From contig JBDHWW010000078.1 of assembly GCA_039810425.1 (NCBI GenBank), forward strand, positions 1-10,427: a stretch of DNA of 10,427 nucleotides. The letters are read 5' to 3'. The stretch comes from Pseudobdellovibrionaceae bacterium. Lineage in GTDB: Bacteria > Bdellovibrionota > Bdellovibrionia > Bdellovibrionales > Bdellovibrionaceae. Below, one piece after another: positions 827 through 10,272 of this stretch; the stretch's first letter is position 1, and every line of letters starts with the position of its first letter. Below the pieces are notes generated by a model. That model saw only the letters and a program-made list of their open reading frames with translations. It was not told the DNA's origin and searched no databases. Position numbers and translations under genes: made by a program.

Positions 827-2044
827 CTACTCTGCCTCCATCGGCAATTGCTCACCTGTCGACACGTTTGCCAGCCGAAGGTGTCCATCGGCCTCGGTCA
901 GACTGCCGGCGTCGATCATCTCGTTAATTGCTCGATAGACGGTGTCTCGTGCTGGCTCGAAGTCCTTACCGTCATACATGACTTGCAACTCATTCTTCAT
1001 CAGCATGTTCGCAACCTGCGCCCGCGTCTTCGCCGGCCTCACGTTCAGATTGCACCGCGTCAGGATGAACGTCTTGATTGTCTCGGTCTTCGTCGGCTTC
1101 TTGTCCGCCCCACCCATCTTTCGTGTCACGTCTTCGGATGTGTAGACGGCCTTGACGCCAATCTCCTTGCCGGCTTCGTTGACAACTGGCTCAAGGCTGA
1201 AGGTCGCGATGAATGGGATAAGCGGGGATGACTTCGCCTTCGTCAACGCGATCTTGACACCCTTCGCCAGCCCTTCTTCGCTCTCACCGCCGATGAGTTC
1301 AATCTGATGCTGCATTGCGGCTTTGATTGCCGACGAGCCGCGTGCGCCGCGCGTCTTGTCCTTGCCGGCGTGGTGAATGACGACAATCGTGCAGCTGGCT
1401 CGACGTGCAATGTCTTCGAGTGCGTTCATCACATGCTTCATTGCTTCGGTGTTTTCATCGACTAAGTGTGTCTTGCTCAGTGAGTCGACGAACAAAACTT
1501 CTATGCCGGCTTCTTTCACTGCCTCGATTACTTCGCTGCGCACCGCTTCATCAGTCAAGTCAAGTTGCCCCAAGTCGGACGACCACCACAGATTCGCATC
1601 TGCTTCGTCGTCAAGTTCATTGGGTGCGCCTACGTCTAGCTTGTTCATGCGATTCTGAAGCGTGGTGTAGTTGCCTTCCAAGTCGATATAGCCGACCTTG
1701 CGCTTCTGCAGCTGATACTTCCCTGCCCATACACCGCCGTATGACAACTTGCGCATCATGTCACCGACGCACCACGATTTGCCGGCGCCACTTTGCGCGA
1801 CGATTGCGGACACAAGGCCAACAGGCAACACGTCAGGAATAATCCACTCGATAGGCGGGCATTCCATTGCGCGAAGTGCCTTGTTGTCGATGAACCTGAT
1901 GCGGCGAAGCGGCTTGTCGCCTTCGTCCTGTCGCGGCTTCTCATCAACTGCCGGCGCCGCTGGCTTGTGTCCGTTCGTGCTGGGCTTCATGTGGTCGACG
2001 CTGAAGGTGTCAAGGAATGAAGGCTTAGTCTTTGTTGCGTTCAT
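827..2044 (-). CDS. AAA_25 / RepA-like (RecA-fold, SF4-type) replicative helicase
   Basis: IEWIIPDVLP motif, Walker A AQSGAGKS, YIDLEG, Walker B VLFVDS, VIHHAGK and RGSSAI motifs. ATGA overlap with the upstream primase gene. Confidence 0.88.
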   Translation of the reverse strand: MNATKTKPSFLDTFSVDHMKPSTNGHKPAAPAVDEKPRQDEGDKPLRRIRFIDNKALRAMECPPIEWIIPDVLPVGLVSAIVAQSGAGKSWCVGDMMRKLSYGGVWAGKYQLQKRKVGYIDLEGNYTTLQNRMNKLDVGAPNELDDEADANLWWSSDLGQLDLTDEAVRSEVIEAVKEAGIEVLFVDSLSKTHLVDENTEAMKHVMNALEDIARRASCTIVVIHHAGKDKTRGARGSSAIKAAMQHQIELIGGESEEGLAKGVKIALTKAKSSPLIPFIATFSLEPVVNEAGKEIGVKAVYTSEDVTRKMGGADKKPTKTETIKTFILTRCNLNVRPAKTRAQVANMLMKNELQVMYDGKDFEPARDTVYRAINEMIDAGSLTEADGHLRLANVSTGEQLPMEAE

Positions 2045-3156
2045 CGTGACACCCCCACCCGCTTCAGATAATCGCGTGATGCCTTCTGCGGCGTCACATT
2101 CACATTGCCGGCCTTCTGCGGCTTCGGCGTCAACTTCATTCCCATCTTCTCGGCCAGCGCCTTCACTGCGGCCTTCACATCTCCGCCGTATTCAAACTCA
2201 CACAGAAGATCGAACGGCTTGAATTGATACCGCTTCTCGCAAGTCTCATTCATCGGGTCATTCGCGCTGAAGGTATAAGCGTGGTCGCCGTCGAAGTAGC
2301 CGCTAATGCCGTCGCGTGGATTCTTGTCAGGTCGTGTGAAGTGGCGTCCATCTTTGGAGATGGTGTAGCCGTAAAACTCCATGACTTTGCGAAGATCTGT
2401 CGCCGCGTTGAATGCGTCGATTACGCTGTTGCCCTCATCGCCCTGCCCTGCTTTCATTTCGATGGGCTTCTGCTCGGCCTTCTTCGCCGGCTTCAAGTCG
2501 GCGCGGATGGCGTCTATCATCTGCTTTGCGTCGTAGTCGCTCGAGGGGGTGTGATCTGTTTCAATCACTGCCCGCATCAAGTCAAGATCATCGACGGTGA
2601 TTGTCGGCAGTGTCATGGTCGGCAATGCGTCTAGCTTGTAGGTATATGCGTTGCCAGTATGCACAGCGAAGCGTGGCGCACGATAGTAAATCTCGCGGGT
2701 GAATGTGAATTTGACTTGGTCGACTTCGCACGTCTTCACATTGAAGACGCCCATCGTGCGCGAGTGTGGCCGCTTCATGTGAACTTTGTCGTGGTCGCCG
2801 GCCAGCAGCATGTAGGCGCGAAGTCCTGAGCCGCTGGGCGTAATCTCAACATAGGGGTCGAACTTCATCAACATCCACAGCGCCACAGCGTCGATGACAC
2901 CCTGCCCTGCATTCAGACAGTCGTCAAGGTCGACTGCGACAAGGTTGCCGACTCTGTTCATGCGGACGCCAAGATAAGGCGTCGCCGGCTTCAACATCGC
3001 CTTCGCTTGTGCGAAGGTCTTCAAGGCGTCGTCACCATTCCAACCAGTAAGCGGGATGCCTTCTGCGTCGGATGGCTGCTTCATCTTATTGGCAATAAGC
3101 CAACACTTCGTCGCGCCAAGTAGCGCGACAATCGGGGAAACTTCTACGGTTTGCAT
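2041..3156 (-). CDS. Prim-Pol (AEP superfamily, NrS-1-like) primase-polymerase, 371 aa
   Basis: VAVDLDDCL (DxD), YVEITPSGSGLR and EIY...RF...TG motifs. The C-terminal IDAFN...GY...RP...FS..DP...PFDL...GGD...A region is typical of phage primases. SD GGGAG precedes ATG 3156. Confidence 0.8.
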   Translation of the reverse strand: MQTVEVSPIVALLGATKCWLIANKMKQPSDAEGIPLTGWNGDDALKTFAQAKAMLKPATPYLGVRMNRVGNLVAVDLDDCLNAGQGVIDAVALWMLMKFDPYVEITPSGSGLRAYMLLAGDHDKVHMKRPHSRTMGVFNVKTCEVDQVKFTFTREIYYRAPRFAVHTGNAYTYKLDALPTMTLPTITVDDLDLMRAVIETDHTPSSDYDAKQMIDAIRADLKPAKKAEQKPIEMKAGQGDEGNSVIDAFNAATDLRKVMEFYGYTISKDGRHFTRPDKNPRDGISGYFDGDHAYTFSANDPMNETCEKRYQFKPFDLLCEFEYGGDVKAAVKALAEKMGMKLTPKPQKAGNVNVTPQKASRDYLKRVGVSR

Positions 3157-3290: not shown

Positions 3291-3563
3291 CTAGGCCATT
3301 GCAGCCTCACATTGTTTTGTCGTCTTCGTCATCTCGCCAAACAGATTCAACTGCGGGCGGATAATCTCATCGTCAAGGATGATTGCGCCAGTCGTCTCAA
3401 ATTTGCGAAGTGCAGTGAGCAGGACATGGCGCGTCAATTCGCCGTCAGACTTGCCAACCGCGTCGGCCACGACTGCCAGTCTCTTCGCTTCATCTTCGCT
3501 CAGCCGCATGATCTTTAGAACCCTGCGGGCGTCTTCGCCCTTCCGGTATTCACGCTTTGCCAT
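3291..3563 (-). CDS. Ribbon-helix-helix (CopG/MobC-like) DNA-binding protein, 90 aa
   Basis: IMRLSEDEAKRLAVVADAVGKSDGELTRHVL fits the RHH pattern. SD GAGGTG and its own promoter lie upstream. C-terminal QLNLF. Confidence 0.65.
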   Translation of the reverse strand: MAKREYRKGEDARRVLKIMRLSEDEAKRLAVVADAVGKSDGELTRHVLLTALRKFETTGAIILDDEIIRPQLNLFGEMTKTTKQCEAAMA

Positions 3564-3586
3564 TTTGCACCTCATCTATGTATAAC

Positions 3587-3614
3587 ATTTTACCACATGA
3601 ATGTATTAGCGCAA
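3587..3614 (-). promoter_or_regulatory. Extended -10 sigma70-like promoter for the RHH-primase-helicase operon
   Basis: TTGCGC-N16-TAAAAT with TGTGG directly upstream of the -10 (TGTGGTAAAAT). Confidence 0.6.
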
Positions 3615-3617
3615 AGG

Positions 3618-3812
3618 TCAAATGTCGCCCTTCCCTACGTCTTCTGCGGCCAACTCGGCCAGGTATCGCCCGCCAGCCTTGCCCTGCTTCTTAGCCTTCG
3701 CCTTCAACTTCTCCCACACCGTCTTCGGGACATACACGTCGACTCGCGCTGAGTCTTTTACGGGCGTCTCACGCTGCGGGCGTGGCGTCGTCTTAATCTG
3801 TCGCTTTGCCAT
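3618..3812 (-). CDS. Small ribbon-helix-helix-like protein, 64 aa
   Basis: RVDVYVPKTVWEKLKAKAKKQGKAGGRYLAELA has a strand-helix-G-helix pattern. SD AGGAG. Confidence 0.65.
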   Translation of the reverse strand: MAKRQIKTTPRPQRETPVKDSARVDVYVPKTVWEKLKAKAKKQGKAGGRYLAELAAEDVGKGDI

Positions 3813-3831
3813 AGTTAAATCTCCTATTTAT

Positions 3832-4208
3832 CCGTCTCACTTCGAGCCGGCTTTACCGTCTCGAATTGTCGTTCTAATCGTCGCAAATGAGACGCTTCAG
3901 CCGTCTCACTTGCCGTCTCGAATGAGACGCTTCGTCTGTCTCGAGCCGTCTCACCATCCGTCGCGCTGGGCGTCTCATTCGCGGGTGTCAACCGTCTCAC
4001 TATCCGTCTCACGGTGCGTCTCATTCACCGTCGCGCCGGCACTCGCGGCCAACCGTCTCACCGCTGCGCATGGCGTGAGACGCTTCAGCCGTCTCGCAAT
4101 GCGACGATGTGTCGTCACATCGTCTCACTTTGGCGTCTCGAAACAGGGTAGGGTGAGACGCATTCAGAACGTCTCACCCTACCACTTCCAACCGTCTCAA
4201 ATGAGACG
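3832..4208. repeat. Dense non-coding array of CGTCTC/GAGACG hexamers with nested palindromes
   Basis: Manual count gives 15 CGTCTC and 5 GAGACG in about 376 bp, plus CGTCGC variants. Perfect 14-bp stem at 4147-4160/4170-4183. A 20-bp direct repeat TGAGACGCTTCAGCCGTCTC at 3888 and 4076. Confidence 0.9.
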
Positions 4209-5414
4209 CTATTCGCCATCGTCGCCGGCCTCCGTTGACTGCGTCTTTTTGCGCCGGCGATATGCCTTTTGCTTGCATGACGATGAGCAGTAGTCTTGCT
4301 TCGGGTCGCCCACGAATTTCTTACCGCATTCAGCGCACGTCTGCTTCGTGTCTTTGTGAAGGTTGGCTGGGTCGCCCTTCGGTAACTTCGTTACGACTTT
4401 TGCCGGCTCACCGATGCGTCTCGCGGGCTGGGCTTCGTCGATCACTTCAGCGTCTTCGGCGTCCTTCGCCAGTCGTGGGGTGAGCGACTTACTGCCGGCC
4501 TTCTTGCCGCCGATAATCCAGTCGCGCTTACCGTCTCCATCAACGTCTTTGAAGTCGATGAATGACGCGACGATGTGAGCCGTGATTGCAGTGATGACAG
4601 ACAGCCCGATTGCAGACACATACACCGACTCGCCAATTTCGCCCAGCACGTCAACGATAGGGACGCGAATGCCGGCCAAGCTTGATACAGTTTCAACCGT
4701 CACCACCGTCAGAAATGCGCCGTAGGCAATGCAGAACGCCCGCCACATCCACGCATCGAATTCATCCTGTGCTTCGTTGGCCTTCGTCAATGACAGGTAA
4801 GCCCACACGAAGCACGTCTCAAGCACAAGGCCACAGATTGCGGCAAGCATCGGATTGATGCCGCGGCTCATGCCGAAGTAGGCTGATGCAATCGCGGAAG
4901 CCAGCACCGCCACGGCCTTCGCAATGAAGCCCACATACTTCGCCGCCGCCGCTGATGCGCTTTCATATTCGGTTGCGTCGCGCATCGTCAGCGGGATAAG
5001 AATGACGGGCACAAGGGCAAGCGCCGCAAGCAAGCCGGCCACAATCTGACCGATGCCACTTAGCGCATCGGGCACGGCCATAAGCCCGCCACGAAGCGCC
5101 GTATTCAATCCAACCAGTGTGAGCGTCACGCCAATCCACGCAATCAGGATGATTGCGCCGGCGCCCTTCGTCGGCATGTGGTTAGTCGTCAGCACGCGTC
5201 CCAGCGTCACCACGACTACACCGACAGACGCAATGACAGCCAGCCCAGCTTCAACCGCACCCGTATTGAGCCGGTCAGCAAATAGTGAGAAGACGCTATA
5301 GCAAGCGAATAGCACCACGGCCACGAATAGCGCAGCCACGGCCACCATTGACGCGCCACCGAAGCGGCTGAAGTCGAATGTTTGAACCTTTGTTTTTGTC
5401 TCAGTAGAATTCAT
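4209..5414 (-). CDS. Polytopic membrane protein (~8 TM) with a C-terminal Cys4 zinc finger, 401 aa
   Basis: About 8 hydrophobic segments, then DVDGDGKRD, a charged linker, and CAECGKKF...YCSSSCKQKAYRRRKK. SD GAGGTG precedes ATG 5414. Confidence 0.8.
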   Translation of the reverse strand: MNSTETKTKVQTFDFSRFGGASMVAVAALFVAVVLFACYSVFSLFADRLNTGAVEAGLAVIASVGVVVVTLGRVLTTNHMPTKGAGAIILIAWIGVTLTLVGLNTALRGGLMAVPDALSGIGQIVAGLLAALALVPVILIPLTMRDATEYESASAAAAKYVGFIAKAVAVLASAIASAYFGMSRGINPMLAAICGLVLETCFVWAYLSLTKANEAQDEFDAWMWRAFCIAYGAFLTVVTVETVSSLAGIRVPIVDVLGEIGESVYVSAIGLSVITAITAHIVASFIDFKDVDGDGKRDWIIGGKKAGSKSLTPRLAKDAEDAEVIDEAQPARRIGEPAKVVTKLPKGDPANLHKDTKQTCAECGKKFVGDPKQDYCSSSCKQKAYRRRKKTQSTEAGDDGE

Positions 5415-5970: not shown

Positions 5971-6630
5971 CTAATTGCCAGCGCCCGCGGCATCAATCTG
6001 TGCATCGTTCGCTACACATCGGCCATTGCGCCAATACTTCAACGGGCACGGCTGCACGCTCTCATCGACTGAAGGTGAGGCCAGGTCGAAGCCGGCCACG
6101 TCAGGCGTCGCAGTCACGACCACGACCACTTCACGCGTTACTTCAATCGGTTGATTGACGATGCGCGTGGCCTCGACCACGTAGGGCGTCGGAGTAATCG
6201 CGCCCGCGCCGGCCAGTGGGTGAGCCGTTGCCGTTGGGTATGTCGTGCCCAACGCTTCAGCCGTTGCCCGTGCGCTATTGACGCCATCGCTGCTACAGCC
6301 GGAAGCCATCAACAGCGCCACGATTGAAAGCGCAAGCGCGAAGATTGAAACGAAGCGACGATGTGATGCTGATGACTCAACAGCCACGACAGGATTCACC
6401 GCGAAGAATGCCAGCCAGTGATACAGCCACGAAGCCCAGCGGCGTCGGTGTTTTGCATCAGCCGCGAAGACGATATGGCAAAGTTGCCGGCGTGCCCGTG
6501 GGCTTGCCTTGTGATAGAGCCGTGTGAACTCACGCGCTTCATACGTGCCCACGCGTGGCTTCACGGCTTCACCCGATGCGCGAAGAATGGCGTCAAGCTT
6601 ATCGTCAGTCCATTGCGTGTTTGTCGTCAT
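5971..6630 (-). CDS. Membrane/lipoprotein-like hypothetical protein, 219 aa
   Basis: Basic N-terminus, internal TM helix ending in lipobox-like LMASGC (Cys112), T/P/V-rich linker (TPTP...EVTREVVVVVTATP), C-terminal Cys pair. ATGA overlap with the upstream ORF. Confidence 0.7.
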   Translation of the reverse strand: MTTNTQWTDDKLDAILRASGEAVKPRVGTYEAREFTRLYHKASPRARRQLCHIVFAADAKHRRRWASWLYHWLAFFAVNPVVAVESSASHRRFVSIFALALSIVALLMASGCSSDGVNSARATAEALGTTYPTATAHPLAGAGAITPTPYVVEATRIVNQPIEVTREVVVVVTATPDVAGFDLASPSVDESVQPCPLKYWRNGRCVANDAQIDAAGAGN

Positions 6631-7041: not shown

Positions 7042-7677
7042 TCAGAATCCGTAGTGAAACTTGCGCATTTTGTCGGCCTTCCACACGGCCAGCGCCATCG
7101 CCAGAACCATGTCGTCATGACCATTCGCGCTTCGATTGCCATAGCTGGGCGCACCACTGCCGCTTATCTCTTCGTCGAAGTCCATCAACTCGCTTTCAAT
7201 CTGTCGCCAGTGTGGTATCTGTGTTGCGATCTTGAGCCGGCCACTTTCAAACGCGACGCGAAGCGGGCTGATAAGTTGAACCTTCGGTAAATAGGTGCGA
7301 CTGCCTTCGCTGCGATCTTGGCCGACGCCCGATGTGATGACAACTTCATCCATGCGAAGCCGCTGCGCACGAAGCAACTCGACGACTGCATTGCCAACAC
7401 CTGTCGCGTCGACGATGAGCATGTAATCGTGAATCACTTCTTTGCGCGGTATCTCTTTATCCATCGGCCAGTATTCTCGCTCGACGATTGCATCAGGAAG
7501 CCGGCGAATCAAGTCGCCTACATGCTGCGCCACTTTTGTGTAGGGCGTCCCAAGTGGGAAACGATCAACGTTATTAACTTCTATCGCGCCCTTCGGATTG
7601 TCGAAGTCGGTGCGCTGGGCAATGCACACGGCGCTATAGTCATTCGATTTACCCAAGTCAAGGCCAATGAAATACAT
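7042..7677 (-). CDS. Terminase large subunit C-terminal RNase H-like nuclease domain as a stand-alone gene
   Basis: YFIGLDLGKSNDYSA, IVDATGVG and HDDMVLAMALA are the acidic motifs of Terminase_6C-type nucleases. Own SD GGAGGA 9 nt before the ATG. Confidence 0.85.
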   Translation of the reverse strand: MYFIGLDLGKSNDYSAVCIAQRTDFDNPKGAIEVNNVDRFPLGTPYTKVAQHVGDLIRRLPDAIVEREYWPMDKEIPRKEVIHDYMLIVDATGVGNAVVELLRAQRLRMDEVVITSGVGQDRSEGSRTYLPKVQLISPLRVAFESGRLKIATQIPHWRQIESELMDFDEEISGSGAPSYGNRSANGHDDMVLAMALAVWKADKMRKFHYGF

Positions 7678-7683
7678 GATGGT

Positions 7684-8484
7684 TTATCCTCCAAAAAGCG
7701 GAATGAAGGGAGTGTCGCCGCTTAGGGCGTTCCTTACATCCTCGCTACGAAACACACTGCTAGTCGTATCGGTGAATTCACACAGATACTCGCTGCGATA
7801 CCATGCGTCACCTAATGCCAGCCGTTCTTCTGCTAAGAAGTCCGCACTGATGCGTGGGTTATCTGTCGCCTTCAGCGTCACGCGTCGCCACGTATCGCCA
7901 CCGTCACGCCATTCATCGTAAAAGTGCCCGCGCTGTCCCCACGGCGTAGACGCGAGAATGAGCCGGCCACCACTCACAGCCAGCATCGGGCGCACGGCCT
8001 TATACAACTCATCATCAACGCGGGCGGCTTCGTCTTCAATGAGCAAGTCAACAGCGGAGAATCCGCGAATGGTTGACTCCGAAGCCGGCAATGAGACGAT
8101 GCGTGAGCCGTTCGCAAATGTCGCGCTCAGTTTGTTGTCTTCCATCATCGCGGGCGGCGTCTTCATCTTGCCCAGCCAGCTCGAACATTTGCGGAATAAC
8201 TCTGACGACTGGCGAAGGGAAGGGGATACCAACAGCACCAACGCATTAGGATTGAACATGGCAGTGTGAACGGCCAACAGTGAAGCGATGGTTGACTTGC
8301 CTGATTGACGCGCACAGTTGAGCAACAGCCGCTTGCCTTCCCAGCGCATCACGGCCTCTTGCCATGCGTCAGGCTCGAAGCCCAGCGAACGCCCGAACGC
8401 CACCACATCAGCGGGCACTTCGTCGGCATTCTGCCGGCGTGCCAATAGCGCCTTGATTTCTTTAATGTCGCGTTCAATTGCCAC
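7684..8484 (-). CDS. Terminase large subunit N-terminal ATPase domain (Terminase_6-like)
   Basis: PDAWQ Q-motif, Walker A ARQSGKST, Walker B LLIEDEAA, coupling motif ASTPWG, and YRSEYLCEF. GTG start with SD AAGGAG. Confidence 0.9.
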   Translation of the reverse strand: MAIERDIKEIKALLARRQNADEVPADVVAFGRSLGFEPDAWQEAVMRWEGKRLLLNCARQSGKSTIASLLAVHTAMFNPNALVLLVSPSLRQSSELFRKCSSWLGKMKTPPAMMEDNKLSATFANGSRIVSLPASESTIRGFSAVDLLIEDEAARVDDELYKAVRPMLAVSGGRLILASTPWGQRGHFYDEWRDGGDTWRRVTLKATDNPRISADFLAEERLALGDAWYRSEYLCEFTDTTSSVFRSEDVRNALSGDTPFIPLFGG

Positions 8485-8893
8485 GGCTCAACATCTCCTT
8501 GATTGCGGCCACATCATCTTCAACCGTTGAAAGCCGGCGCACCGTATCGGCTGCATCAGTCAATGCCTTCGCCGCTTGAACTCTCACAGCCGGCGTCACG
8601 TCTTCATCTTGCGCAATGTCAATCAACACATTCGCGGCAACTTCCATCCCGTAGGCGTAGCGCGTCGCTGCATGGCGGATTTTGTCGCGTGCAGCATCGG
8701 CCACGGCTGCGGCAAAATGCGGCGTTTTGAGCCATCGGTGCAAAGTGTCATCACTCACGCCCACGGCCTTCGCCGCTTCGGTGAGCGATGGGTGAGTGAG
8801 TAGCGCGGCCACGGCTTGAACCTGCTTCGGCGTCAAGCCGGCCACGTCAACATCAGAGCCGGCCACAGCCAGCGTCTTATCAGTCTTCGCCAT
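8474..8893 (-). CDS. Putative terminase small subunit (N-terminal HTH), 139 aa
   Basis: LTPKQ...LL...SLTEAAKAVGVSDDTLHRWLK...F HTH followed by helical oligomerisation-like segments. Directly upstream of and overlapping TerL. SD AGGAG before ATG 8893. Confidence 0.72.
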   Translation of the reverse strand: MAKTDKTLAVAGSDVDVAGLTPKQVQAVAALLTHPSLTEAAKAVGVSDDTLHRWLKTPHFAAAVADAARDKIRHAATRYAYGMEVAANVLIDIAQDEDVTPAVRVQAAKALTDAADTVRRLSTVEDDVAAIKEMLSRGN

Positions 8894-9875
8894 TGTCATC
8901 ATCTCCTGAGTCATACGTCGCGGCCAATGCGTCACTAGCCGCGTTCAAGGCTTCGTTGGCTTCGCTTCGGTCATAGCGTTGCGTCGTTGTAATCGCTGCA
9001 TGGCCTAACATGCGCTGGGCAACATGAACGCCCTTCGCACGGATGACAACCGTGGCCGCGGTGCGCCTGAAGTCGTGCCATGTGATGTTTGCAATGCCGG
9101 CTTCGTTCGCACGCTTCGCCAGTATTTCATCGGCGCTGTTGACGGTCAGCGGCTTGTCAAGTGGAATGCCGGCGCGGTGCATCGGTGTAATCAACCATTC
9201 GCCGGCGCCGCGGAACTTCAGCCAGTCCTTCACGACCTTCCACAAGTCGCCAACAATGGCCGGCGTGGTGCGTTCTTTATTGCCTTTGCCAATGACGCGC
9301 ACTTGTGCGCCCTTGCCATCGGGAAGAAGAATCAAGTCAGGAAGGCGCATCTTCACAATCTCGCCGCGTCGCGCACCCGTGGCCGCTGCAATCGCAATGA
9401 GAGCCGCGTCACGCTTGCCCGCTGGGTGAGCGTCGCGCCGGCACACGTCAATCAGGCTTCGCACTTCAGCCGGCGTCAACTCACGGCCAGCTATCTCACG
9501 CGTGCCCGTGTCACGTAGGCGCTTCGCAGTGTCAAGCAATCGTTGGTAGGCGTCGGTTGTCATGTCGCCGGAAGCCCACGCGCTTCGCGCCGTGCCCGTC
9601 AACGCGGCCAATACTCGATTACGCTGGGCGGGCGCACCGTCAACGCGTGCCATGATTGCGGGAAGGTTAGCGGCGTCAAGCTTGCGCCAATCCACCGTCA
9701 GCCATGAATCGAAGCCCATTGCCTTCGCTACGACATTCAAGGCGCTGCGCTGCGTCTTCTTCGACAGGTCAGAGCGAAGGCTTGAGAGATAGACCACAGC
9801 CGGCTTGACTTCGGCTGTCATCTGCGCGGGCGTGTTGCCGGCGTCTTCGGGAGTGATAGGGATAAGGTTGCTCAT
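8880..9875 (-). CDS. Tyrosine recombinase / phage integrase family protein, 331 aa
   Basis: Catalytic set intact: TGARRGE (R), GKGNKER (K), HDFRR (HxxR), LGH, RYD (Y). Confidence 0.93.
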   Translation of the reverse strand: MSNLIPITPEDAGNTPAQMTAEVKPAVVYLSSLRSDLSKKTQRSALNVVAKAMGFDSWLTVDWRKLDAANLPAIMARVDGAPAQRNRVLAALTGTARSAWASGDMTTDAYQRLLDTAKRLRDTGTREIAGRELTPAEVRSLIDVCRRDAHPAGKRDAALIAIAAATGARRGEIVKMRLPDLILLPDGKGAQVRVIGKGNKERTTPAIVGDLWKVVKDWLKFRGAGEWLITPMHRAGIPLDKPLTVNSADEILAKRANEAGIANITWHDFRRTAATVVIRAKGVHVAQRMLGHAAITTTQRYDRSEANEALNAASDALAATYDSGDDDNGED

Positions 9876-10162: not shown

Positions 10163-10272
10163 AGGGGAACTTTGGTAACTTTGGTAACTTTTTCCACCGC
10201 TAAAAAAATCGCATCTGTCTTCTGAAAAATTTTTGCGTGCCAAAAAGTTCCGAAAGTTACCAAAGTTCCCCT
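10163..10272. repeat. 31-bp inverted repeat built of three 9-bp AAAGTTACC-like units per arm, around a 48-bp AT-rich spacer
   Basis: Arms at 10163-10193 and 10242-10272 match at 29/31. The spacer contains A and T tracts. Confidence 0.88.

Follow-up and report, generated by a model that had tools for sequence, protein, structure and literature searches.

Gene content and probable host of the window

The window, i.e., the whole 10,427-nucleotide stretch of DNA analyzed here, is the entire contig C78 of assembly G000. It carries a dense array of short repeated motifs next to a membrane-protein gene whose product has a zinc finger at its C-terminal end. The genes considered below are as follows.

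827 to 3156, minus strand: replication module, with an AAA_25 helicase-like gene (827 to 2044) and a primase-polymerase-like gene (2041 to 3156)
3618 to 3812, minus strand: RHH-like gene behind the array (Pfam RHH_5, E = 0.0015, below the cutoff)
4209 to 5414, minus strand: gene for a 401-aa membrane protein with ~8 hydrophobic helices (aa 19 to 285) and a C-terminal zinc finger
4230 to 4349, minus strand: within that gene, a C4 zinc finger and basic helix (aa about 356 to 395), homologous to the SpdA2 N-terminal domain
5971 to 6630, minus strand: gene for a small lipoprotein-like protein with, by inspection, a hydrophobic signal-like stretch ending in cysteine
7042 to 8899, minus strand: packaging-like module, with a TerS-like HTH gene (8474 to 8899) and the terminase large subunit in two genes (ATPase, 7684 to 8484; nuclease, 7042 to 7677), each matching PHROG families of that size
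8880 to 9875, minus strand: tyrosine integrase gene

The window also encodes RHH-like proteins, and homologues of the 5971 to 6630 protein sit directly before the membrane gene in related loci L004, L007, and L008 to L010. Among the 14 to 16 window open reading frames (ORFs) scanned, no capsid or portal protein was matched. The 16 ORFs compared with Pfam and PHROG gave no family match to ParA, ParM, or FtsK/TraB, and their only ATPases were the AAA_25 and terminase proteins. We found neither a clear att repeat nor a terminal overlap on the contig. Repeats were seen at two other places. Immediately downstream of the AAA_25 gene, at 681 to 793, a short palindrome is surrounded by GGACA(G)-type repeats that face either way, making this region a candidate replication origin. 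Upstream of the integrase gene, at 10163 to 10272, a 43-bp inverted repeat (84%) occurs with tandem GGTAACTTT units and is a possible att, packaging, or arm site.

The GC content of the contig is 57%, compared with 49% for the assembly, and its tetranucleotide distance is 0.051, compared with a maximum of 0.032 among large contigs (228 chunks). As the contig is a composition outlier and the membrane gene is absent from 60 relatives of the assembly, it is probably misbinned, and G000 is probably not the true host. Homologues of the membrane gene were found in one Thermoflexales metagenome-assembled genome; within its class, 2 of 401 genomes have one, and within its order, 4 of 50 do. The Thermoflexales (Chloroflexota) are therefore the likely host. 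Near-identical DNA was found in 20 of the 21 sequencing runs listed (sludge, wastewater, and bioreactor metagenomes), with no RNA run among those listed; filamentous Chloroflexi occur in sludge, according to the accessible part of a published report (PMC6753630). Other GC or tetranucleotide outliers in the assembly (C86, C104, C88, C82, C93, C85, and many contigs of <5 kb) suggest that it contains further foreign contigs. One of these, C86, opens with a GACGGA-type tandem run.

The motif array and the membrane-linked zinc finger

The array spans 376 bp (3833 to 4208) and contains 20 exact copies of a hexamer, 15 as CGTCTC and 5 as GAGACG. All 20 positions given in the preliminary description proved exact, as did the presence of both orientations. 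Its statement that well under one copy is expected by chance also holds: ~0.3 copies are expected in 376 bp, as calculated from 7.8 expected in the whole window, where 27 copies are present and 0 of 200 shuffles reached that number. No other cluster in the 149 contigs of the assembly is as dense in hexamers (20 in 400 bp). The inverted elements listed here were likewise recovered where they had been reported, including the palindromic unit CGTC(T/G)C-N4-GAGACG at three positions and the perfect 14-bp stem.

3879 to 3894: palindrome CGTCGC-N4-GAGACG
3914 to 3929: palindrome CGTCTC-N4-GAGACG
4147 to 4183: 14-bp perfect inverted repeat (4147 to 4160 paired with 4170 to 4183)
4193 to 4208: palindrome CGTCTC-N4-GAGACG, abutting the stop codon of the membrane gene

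The array begins at the membrane-gene stop, as had been described, with its first copy directly after the TAG (4211 to 4209), and it stops short of the RHH-like gene, its last copy lying ~20 nucleotides (nt) before the ATG at 3812. A further copy lies within that gene, at 3765. We agree that the array is not a CRISPR, as it has no repeat-spacer period, and that it is not frame consistent, as no open frame runs through it. A continuous protein across the array was considered and rejected, since every reading frame is interrupted.

The copies had been described as irregularly spaced, which turned out to be wrong, as they are phased at about 11 to 12 bp. Same-strand spacings are 12, 12, 12, 13, 22 to 24, 31 to 37, and 45, for which 11.3 bp is the fitting period (P = 0.0045, compared with randomly placed copies scanned for a period in the same way). 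Degenerate copies (CGTCGC, CGTCAC, and TGTCTC) sit on the same lattice as the exact ones, and when they are included, the period is 12.2 bp (P = 0.0005 against random placement, a null that leaves aside tandem duplication, which would also produce phase). Nine of 14 spacings are divisible by three (P = 0.017).

In the membrane protein, the finger and basic helix are modeled confidently and follow a predicted disordered linker at about aa 308 to 347. The membrane domain has no Pfam, NCBIfam, or fold assignment, the protein was unmatched in the plasmid and phage record collections, and an Atlas search gave no usable match. Against the sequences of solved structures, the finger profile found mainly C2H2 repeats, which match its CxxCG half only. 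Among the 11 closest homologues of the membrane protein, 5 end in a finger and 6 do not; most of the distant homologues end at or just past PK. In a tree of 70 family proteins, in-frame finger fusions occupy four separate places among PK-ending lineages, which suggests that the finger has been swapped in repeatedly (the tree is a quick version with untrimmed tails, in which L044 forms a long branch). P0077, P0018, P0093, and P0068 are either homologues whose C-terminal part carries HQQ or DMG repeats or other membrane proteins that end in the same finger. Finger-fused proteins include P0001 to P0005, P0013, P0037, P0068, and P0093.

The finger resembles that of SpdA2 from the Streptomyces plasmid pIJ101 (36% identity over 44 aa by BLASTP, E = 3e−7; 89% by hhalign). 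By score, it ranks second among 31 fingers compared with SpdA2, a comparison in which many unrelated fingers also score; the best scorer, L053, is without an array, and finger similarity alone therefore does not predict the site. The finger of L044, a related locus, is weakly SpdA2-like (E = 5e−4). In the accessible part of the published work, SpdA2 is described as containing a zinc-finger motif and as specifically binding CGTCACGTGACG inside its own gene by an electrophoretic mobility shift assay (EMSA), and its loss leads to a mild drop in segregational stability (PMC4170104). The half-site reported there, CGTCAC (from the site CGTCAC-GTGACG), differs from the CGTCTC of the window by one base, and the polarity of the palindromes is equal. 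The finger is thus the likely reader of the array, being homologous to SpdA2, whose published half-site is nearly identical.

We also compared variant contigs from eight sequencing runs, among them X9 and X15. In these two variants, the membrane-gene DNA is identical up to position 4512 and then gives way to 245 other letters, so that the finger is swapped, and the array is shorter and diverged. The stretch from 4191 to 4221, with its palindrome, is kept (2 differences in 31 nt) though the neighboring DNA has been replaced. Where the X9 contig could be aligned, the copies at 3833 and 3857 are themselves unchanged, and the changes listed fall next to them. The 14-bp inverted repeat at 4147 to 4183 is unmatched in both, and the RHH-like gene remains beside the array.

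Related loci, frameshifts, and motif classes

A close alignment (A1) retrieved no related loci from three collections, and wider alignments retrieved 3 viral, 30 metagenome, and 2 genome loci. We compared the window and 26 other family loci, 27 in all, in which the stop is visible; L009, L010, L013, L015, L017, L018, L023, L026, L028, L033 to L035, and L039 to L041 were dropped as duplicate, near-duplicate, or truncated. Four of the 27 (the window, L044, L007, and L011) are of the finger type, and in L007 and L011 the finger is encoded as a separate gene. A ParA-like gene (by inspection) with a small partner was seen upstream of the membrane gene in both of the latter (L007, 502 to 1487; L011, 7721 to 8697). 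L044, from genome G488, encodes a distant membrane homologue with an in-frame finger, followed immediately by a noncoding TGTCAC array in both orientations, with 15 GTCACA in 600 nt and a period of 11.4 bp (P = 0.0025; 7 sites). The L044 element is integrated beside a host gene on a 322-kb contig and carries homologues of the window primase and TerS.

Another 14 loci are of the frameshift type, with an in-frame −1 slippery heptamer (C CCA AAA or A AAA AAA) no more than 12 codons from the membrane-gene stop, against a background of about 1% per gene end. A stem often follows a few bases after the slippery site, and a comparison of L004 with L008 showed this stem preserved, each of its sides carrying a change. 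The open −1 frame spans 108 to 151 aa, except in L037, where it is cut by the contig end. Twelve of the 14 tails end in a domain modeled as three strands and a helix, with the qualification that the domain profile was seeded from some of the loci on which it was scored. This domain has 41 further homologues and no family or fold match (best Z, 3.7), so that DNA binding by it is a guess from its basic and aromatic residues; missing family and fold matches for the membrane and tail domains do not in themselves establish new folds. All four loci found through the tail domain have a slippery site, and three of them (L071, L072, and L076) have in front of it a different membrane protein of three to four helices without a Pfam match. 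The remaining family loci are L038 and eight tail-less loci with a hairpin at their end; they show neither finger nor frameshift features. Seven frameshift loci (the L012 group) are close kin, as are the eight tail-less loci, and there are therefore far fewer independent lineages than rows.

Several further features of the relatives deserve mention on their own account. A gene of 80 to 125 aa, similar in appearance from locus to locus, overlaps the tail end in L004, L005, L006, L042, L043, L071, L072, L075, and L076; it often holds more motif copies, is absent in the array-less L012 group, and could encode a DNA reader or cofactor. In L006 (7241 to 7572), 12 AAGTTC/ACTTTG copies lie within a replication-like gene and are likely iterons. 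L017 contains an integrase-membrane-primase unit twice, offset by 6722 bp, which suggests a small circular or tandem element. L042 has the frameshift-type module in a phage-like contig with long tail-type genes, and the module is thus not limited to small elements.

The other arrays also bear on whether the window array could serve the primase/helicase as an iteron-type origin or the terminase-like proteins as a packaging site. The element encodes both modules, and the element at L044 has primase and TerS homologues. However, the repeats at 681 to 793 and the inverted repeat at 10163 to 10272 are better candidates for such sites, and phage-like contigs whose replication genes differ (L042) likewise have arrays behind the membrane gene, so we regard this explanation as very improbable.

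Neither a slippery heptamer nor a match to the tail-domain profile was found in the window; the other three finger-type loci likewise have no slippery heptamer. The window does contain the following feature.

4203 to 4229, minus strand: putative frameshift-junction relic, nearly identical in its letters to what L008, L004, and L006 have past their slippery site and stop

From this match of the stop-flanking letters, and from the 9 of 14 spacings that are multiples of three, we infer that the window array may descend from a coding frameshift tail that lost its frame after the finger fused in front.

The same two observations would fit an array that functions as RNA, through hairpins stacked in the membrane-gene 3′ region, or that is a neutral, duplicated relic of frameshift hairpins or of the coding tail. 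Just past the slippery site of the relatives, by a few bases, the first palindromes of the motif fold into stems; the window array folds at z = −7.5, and tandem duplication of a 12-nt unit would likewise give phasing. On the other hand, inverted DNA repeats fold well by construction, pairing throughout is impossible with 15 of the 20 copies in one orientation, Rfam has no match within the array, and the L044 array has an equal period with another hexamer. A structured RNA had been named in the preliminary description as an alternative, and it loses ground here, as the 14-bp hairpin, the best in the array, is not kept in the variant contigs. We judge the RNA and relic explanations improbable.

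To compare the motifs, we counted YGTCWC after the membrane stop. The window has 23 copies (2.0 expected) and L044 has 10 (1.3 expected), and L007 and L011 show a weak excess, with 5 copies each (1.3 to 1.4 expected; P = 0.01 each). None of 13 frameshift-tail loci and none of 8 tail-less loci had an excess. The class was drawn from the two strong finger-plus-array loci, the window and L044, and its fit to the finger loci is therefore not independent; it had been fixed before the paper on the SpdA2 site (PMC4170104) came to light, and its fit to the published sps site is independent. Frameshift-tail loci carry other motifs, namely, GTGCCAGA (L004), GTGGCA (L006), TACTGGCA (L042), TGCCAGCA (L071), and TGCCACCA (L072). 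Across 17 frameshift-tail loci, these five have strong TGCC-type arrays, L005 and L043 have weak ones, and 10 have none; the eight tail-less loci have neither a reader domain nor an array. As judged from sequence, motif class tracks domain class. The expectation that homologous membrane genes are followed by arrays whose motif varies with the domain thus held in some lineages and failed in others.

Among finger loci unlinked to the membrane family, 1 of 25 has a YGTCWC excess, and the rule that the finger class always adjoins a YGTCWC array was rejected. When 18 unlinked loci were pooled, there was a slight excess (P = 0.026), driven by L057. In that phage finger locus we noted a TCCGTCA cluster, and the phage finger loci L056, L058, and L068 have many YGTTAC/YGTAAC copies across the locus. 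L047 to L051 are, we presume, DUF2256.

The change of motif between relatives speaks against a decoy for a restriction enzyme that recognizes CGTCTC, a possibility that had already been ranked low. The hexamer equals the BsmBI/Esp3I recognition site. The idea fails because relatives carry other motifs, TGTCAC or TGCC type, at the equivalent place, and the degenerate copies share the lattice of the exact ones; we give it next to no credence.

The link between motif and domain bears equally on the proposal that the neighboring RHH protein binds the array, as a parC/parS-like centromere or an autoregulatory operator, with the membrane-finger gene a bystander. RHH proteins such as omega and ParG bind arrays of short direct and inverted repeats, and the RHH-like gene starts ~20 nt past the last copy, holds a further copy, and stays next to the array in the variant contigs. 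In L044, however, a like array has an integrase gene and not an RHH gene behind it, no homologue of the window RHH protein was found in L078, the 16 window ORFs contain no ParA or ParM match, and it is with the membrane-linked domain that the motif class changes. Binding by the RHH protein is, in our view, distinctly unlikely.

Proposed role of the array and comparison with known systems

The preliminary description proposed a cis-acting multisite locus analogous to parC or clt. A multisite binding locus remains the best reading; the parC- or clt-style reader does not, as a ParR- or TraB-type protein would be replaced by a membrane-fused finger. We put the probability at roughly 0.55, slightly better than an even chance, that the array is the cognate binding array of the finger and serves to anchor the element at the membrane, for inheritance or filament spread. 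The finger of the membrane protein encoded just upstream would bind the 376-bp array, with pairs of fingers reading the CGTCTC-N4-GAGACG palindromes and further copies taking the 12-bp-spaced half-sites, so that many copies of the membrane protein would load on it. The loaded array would hold the excised element DNA at the cell membrane, which may help inheritance at division or passage between filament cells. In the relatives, −1 frameshifting would make a minority of subunits DNA binding. We infer motif binding by the finger, tethering, frameshifting, and purpose from sequence. Active spreading is weakened as a part of this proposal, since no FtsK/TraB-like motor was found among the ORFs scanned in the element, and a general role of arrays is opposed by the many relatives without one and by the total of two strong finger-plus-array loci.

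Much of this evidence would also suit a membrane-bound transcription regulator, with the finger binding the array to control the genes behind it (RHH, primase, and helicase in the window; integrase in L044). The array lies directly before the RHH-primase-helicase run in the window and directly before the integrase gene in L044, and the evidence connecting finger and motif is common to the regulator and the tether. Operators usually have fewer phased sites than the 20 of the array. Moreover, neither a sigma-70-like promoter nor a terminator-like site was found in 3550 to 4350 (a weak test for this host), and the motifs of relatives lie inside the coding tail and extend into the next gene. We therefore consider a regulator unlikely.

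The membrane tether may, more tentatively, be one case of a wider pattern, which we think possible but doubtful: Chloroflexota elements and phages may carry an undescribed, modular coupling of DNA to membrane. It would be composed of a multipass membrane protein, in many cases accompanied by a lipoprotein-like partner, together with an exchangeable reader and a cognate array. The reader would be either an in-frame SpdA-type finger or, on a fraction of subunits via −1 frameshifting, the new three-strand domain. The array would be written into or just behind the reader gene, and its first palindrome would double as a frameshift stimulator. With neither a ParA nor an FtsK motor of its own, the element would thereby get its DNA through septa or into vesicles or daughter cells.

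If the tether is real, a mobile element would have a motorless, membrane-anchored hold on its own DNA, much as in the older view that segregation works through membrane attachment. Two parts whose meeting had been proposed for Streptomyces, the SpdA interface and the membrane spreading complex, would be naturally fused in it. The window and its relatives provide a testable site for a finger class of which SpdA2 is the only characterized member that we found. They also provide an undescribed membrane family and an undescribed small domain, with a well-conserved candidate −1 frameshift, in a phylum important in activated sludge. Since different readers go with different motifs, specificity is open to direct testing. 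In the literature searched, mostly open access and without supplements, we found no description of the membrane family, its frameshift, or its arrays.

As a whole, the window shares with PICI-like phage satellites a size of ~10 kb, an integrase, a primase and helicase, terminase-like genes, and the absence of a capsid match, and it differs from them in its split terminase large subunit and its membrane-finger-array module. Plasmid centromeres such as parC/ParR, parH/ParG, and parS/omega are bound by RHH adaptors, and the window resembles them in having short phased repeats (11 to 12 bp) beside an RHH-like gene (with its RHH_5 match below the cutoff). Unlike ParMRC and ParA partition systems, it has no match to a partition NTPase, and its motif tracks a membrane-linked domain.

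Programmed −1 frameshifting is known in bacteria from dnaX, the IS3 family, and phage tail chaperones, and the relatives share with these an X XXY YYZ heptamer before the stop, a nearby stem, and a conserved open −1 frame. In contrast to the known cases, the frameshift in the relatives would extend a membrane protein by a domain predicted to bind DNA, and motif copies lie inside the frameshifted tail. In the clt of TraB/clt systems, the sites are 8-bp direct repeats in one orientation, whereas the window core is 6 to 7 bp, with 15 forward and 5 reverse copies, and the window has no TraB/FtsK match. The spreading proteins SpdB2, Spd79, and SpdB3, which act with TraB and clt in pSVH1, are, as is predicted for the window protein, element-encoded integral membrane proteins tied to DNA binding, as far as the accessible part of that report describes them (PMC4447253); a further likeness is that the phylum of the likely host of the window has filamentous members. 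The window membrane domain scored 0.1% by hhalign against pIJ101 SpdB, a single sequence and the sole SpdB-type protein compared. According to the same source, SpdB2 binds DNA without sequence preference, unlike the predicted motif-specific finger, and SpdA contacts the membrane spreading proteins of pSVH1 and has been proposed as their DNA interface (PMC4447253).

The closest likeness is to SpdA and its sps sites on pIJ101, pSVH1, and pSN22, as presented in the accessible part of PMC4170104. Both systems belong to mobile elements and have a homologous zinc finger, the conserved SpdA domain of ~38 aa being present in the window protein, and both have a short palindromic site in or beside the reader's own gene, with a CGTC(A/T)C half-site of equal polarity. 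A role in stability has been shown for SpdA2, whereas the window finger is a predicted reader by homology. SpdA has its finger at the N terminus of a protein of 117 to 163 aa, and the window protein has it at the C terminus of 401 aa with ~8 helices. The SpdA site is the 12-bp palindrome CGTCACGTGACG (or a form with a 1-nt insertion) in two to three copies at the gene; in the window, there are 20 phased, mostly unpaired sites and three palindromes with a 4-nt spacer. The sps sites are on Streptomyces rolling-circle plasmids, while the window is an integrative element or phage of likely Thermoflexales, and in its family the reader can be exchanged for another domain behind a −1 slippery site. 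By the membership features compared, the predicted window system lies outside SpdA/sps, ParMRC, and TraB/clt. By analogy, the module would work like SpdA/sps joined to a membrane anchor; the SpdA/sps principle is known, and what appears to be undescribed is the membrane anchor and its combination with a swappable reader that would be partly gated by frameshifting.
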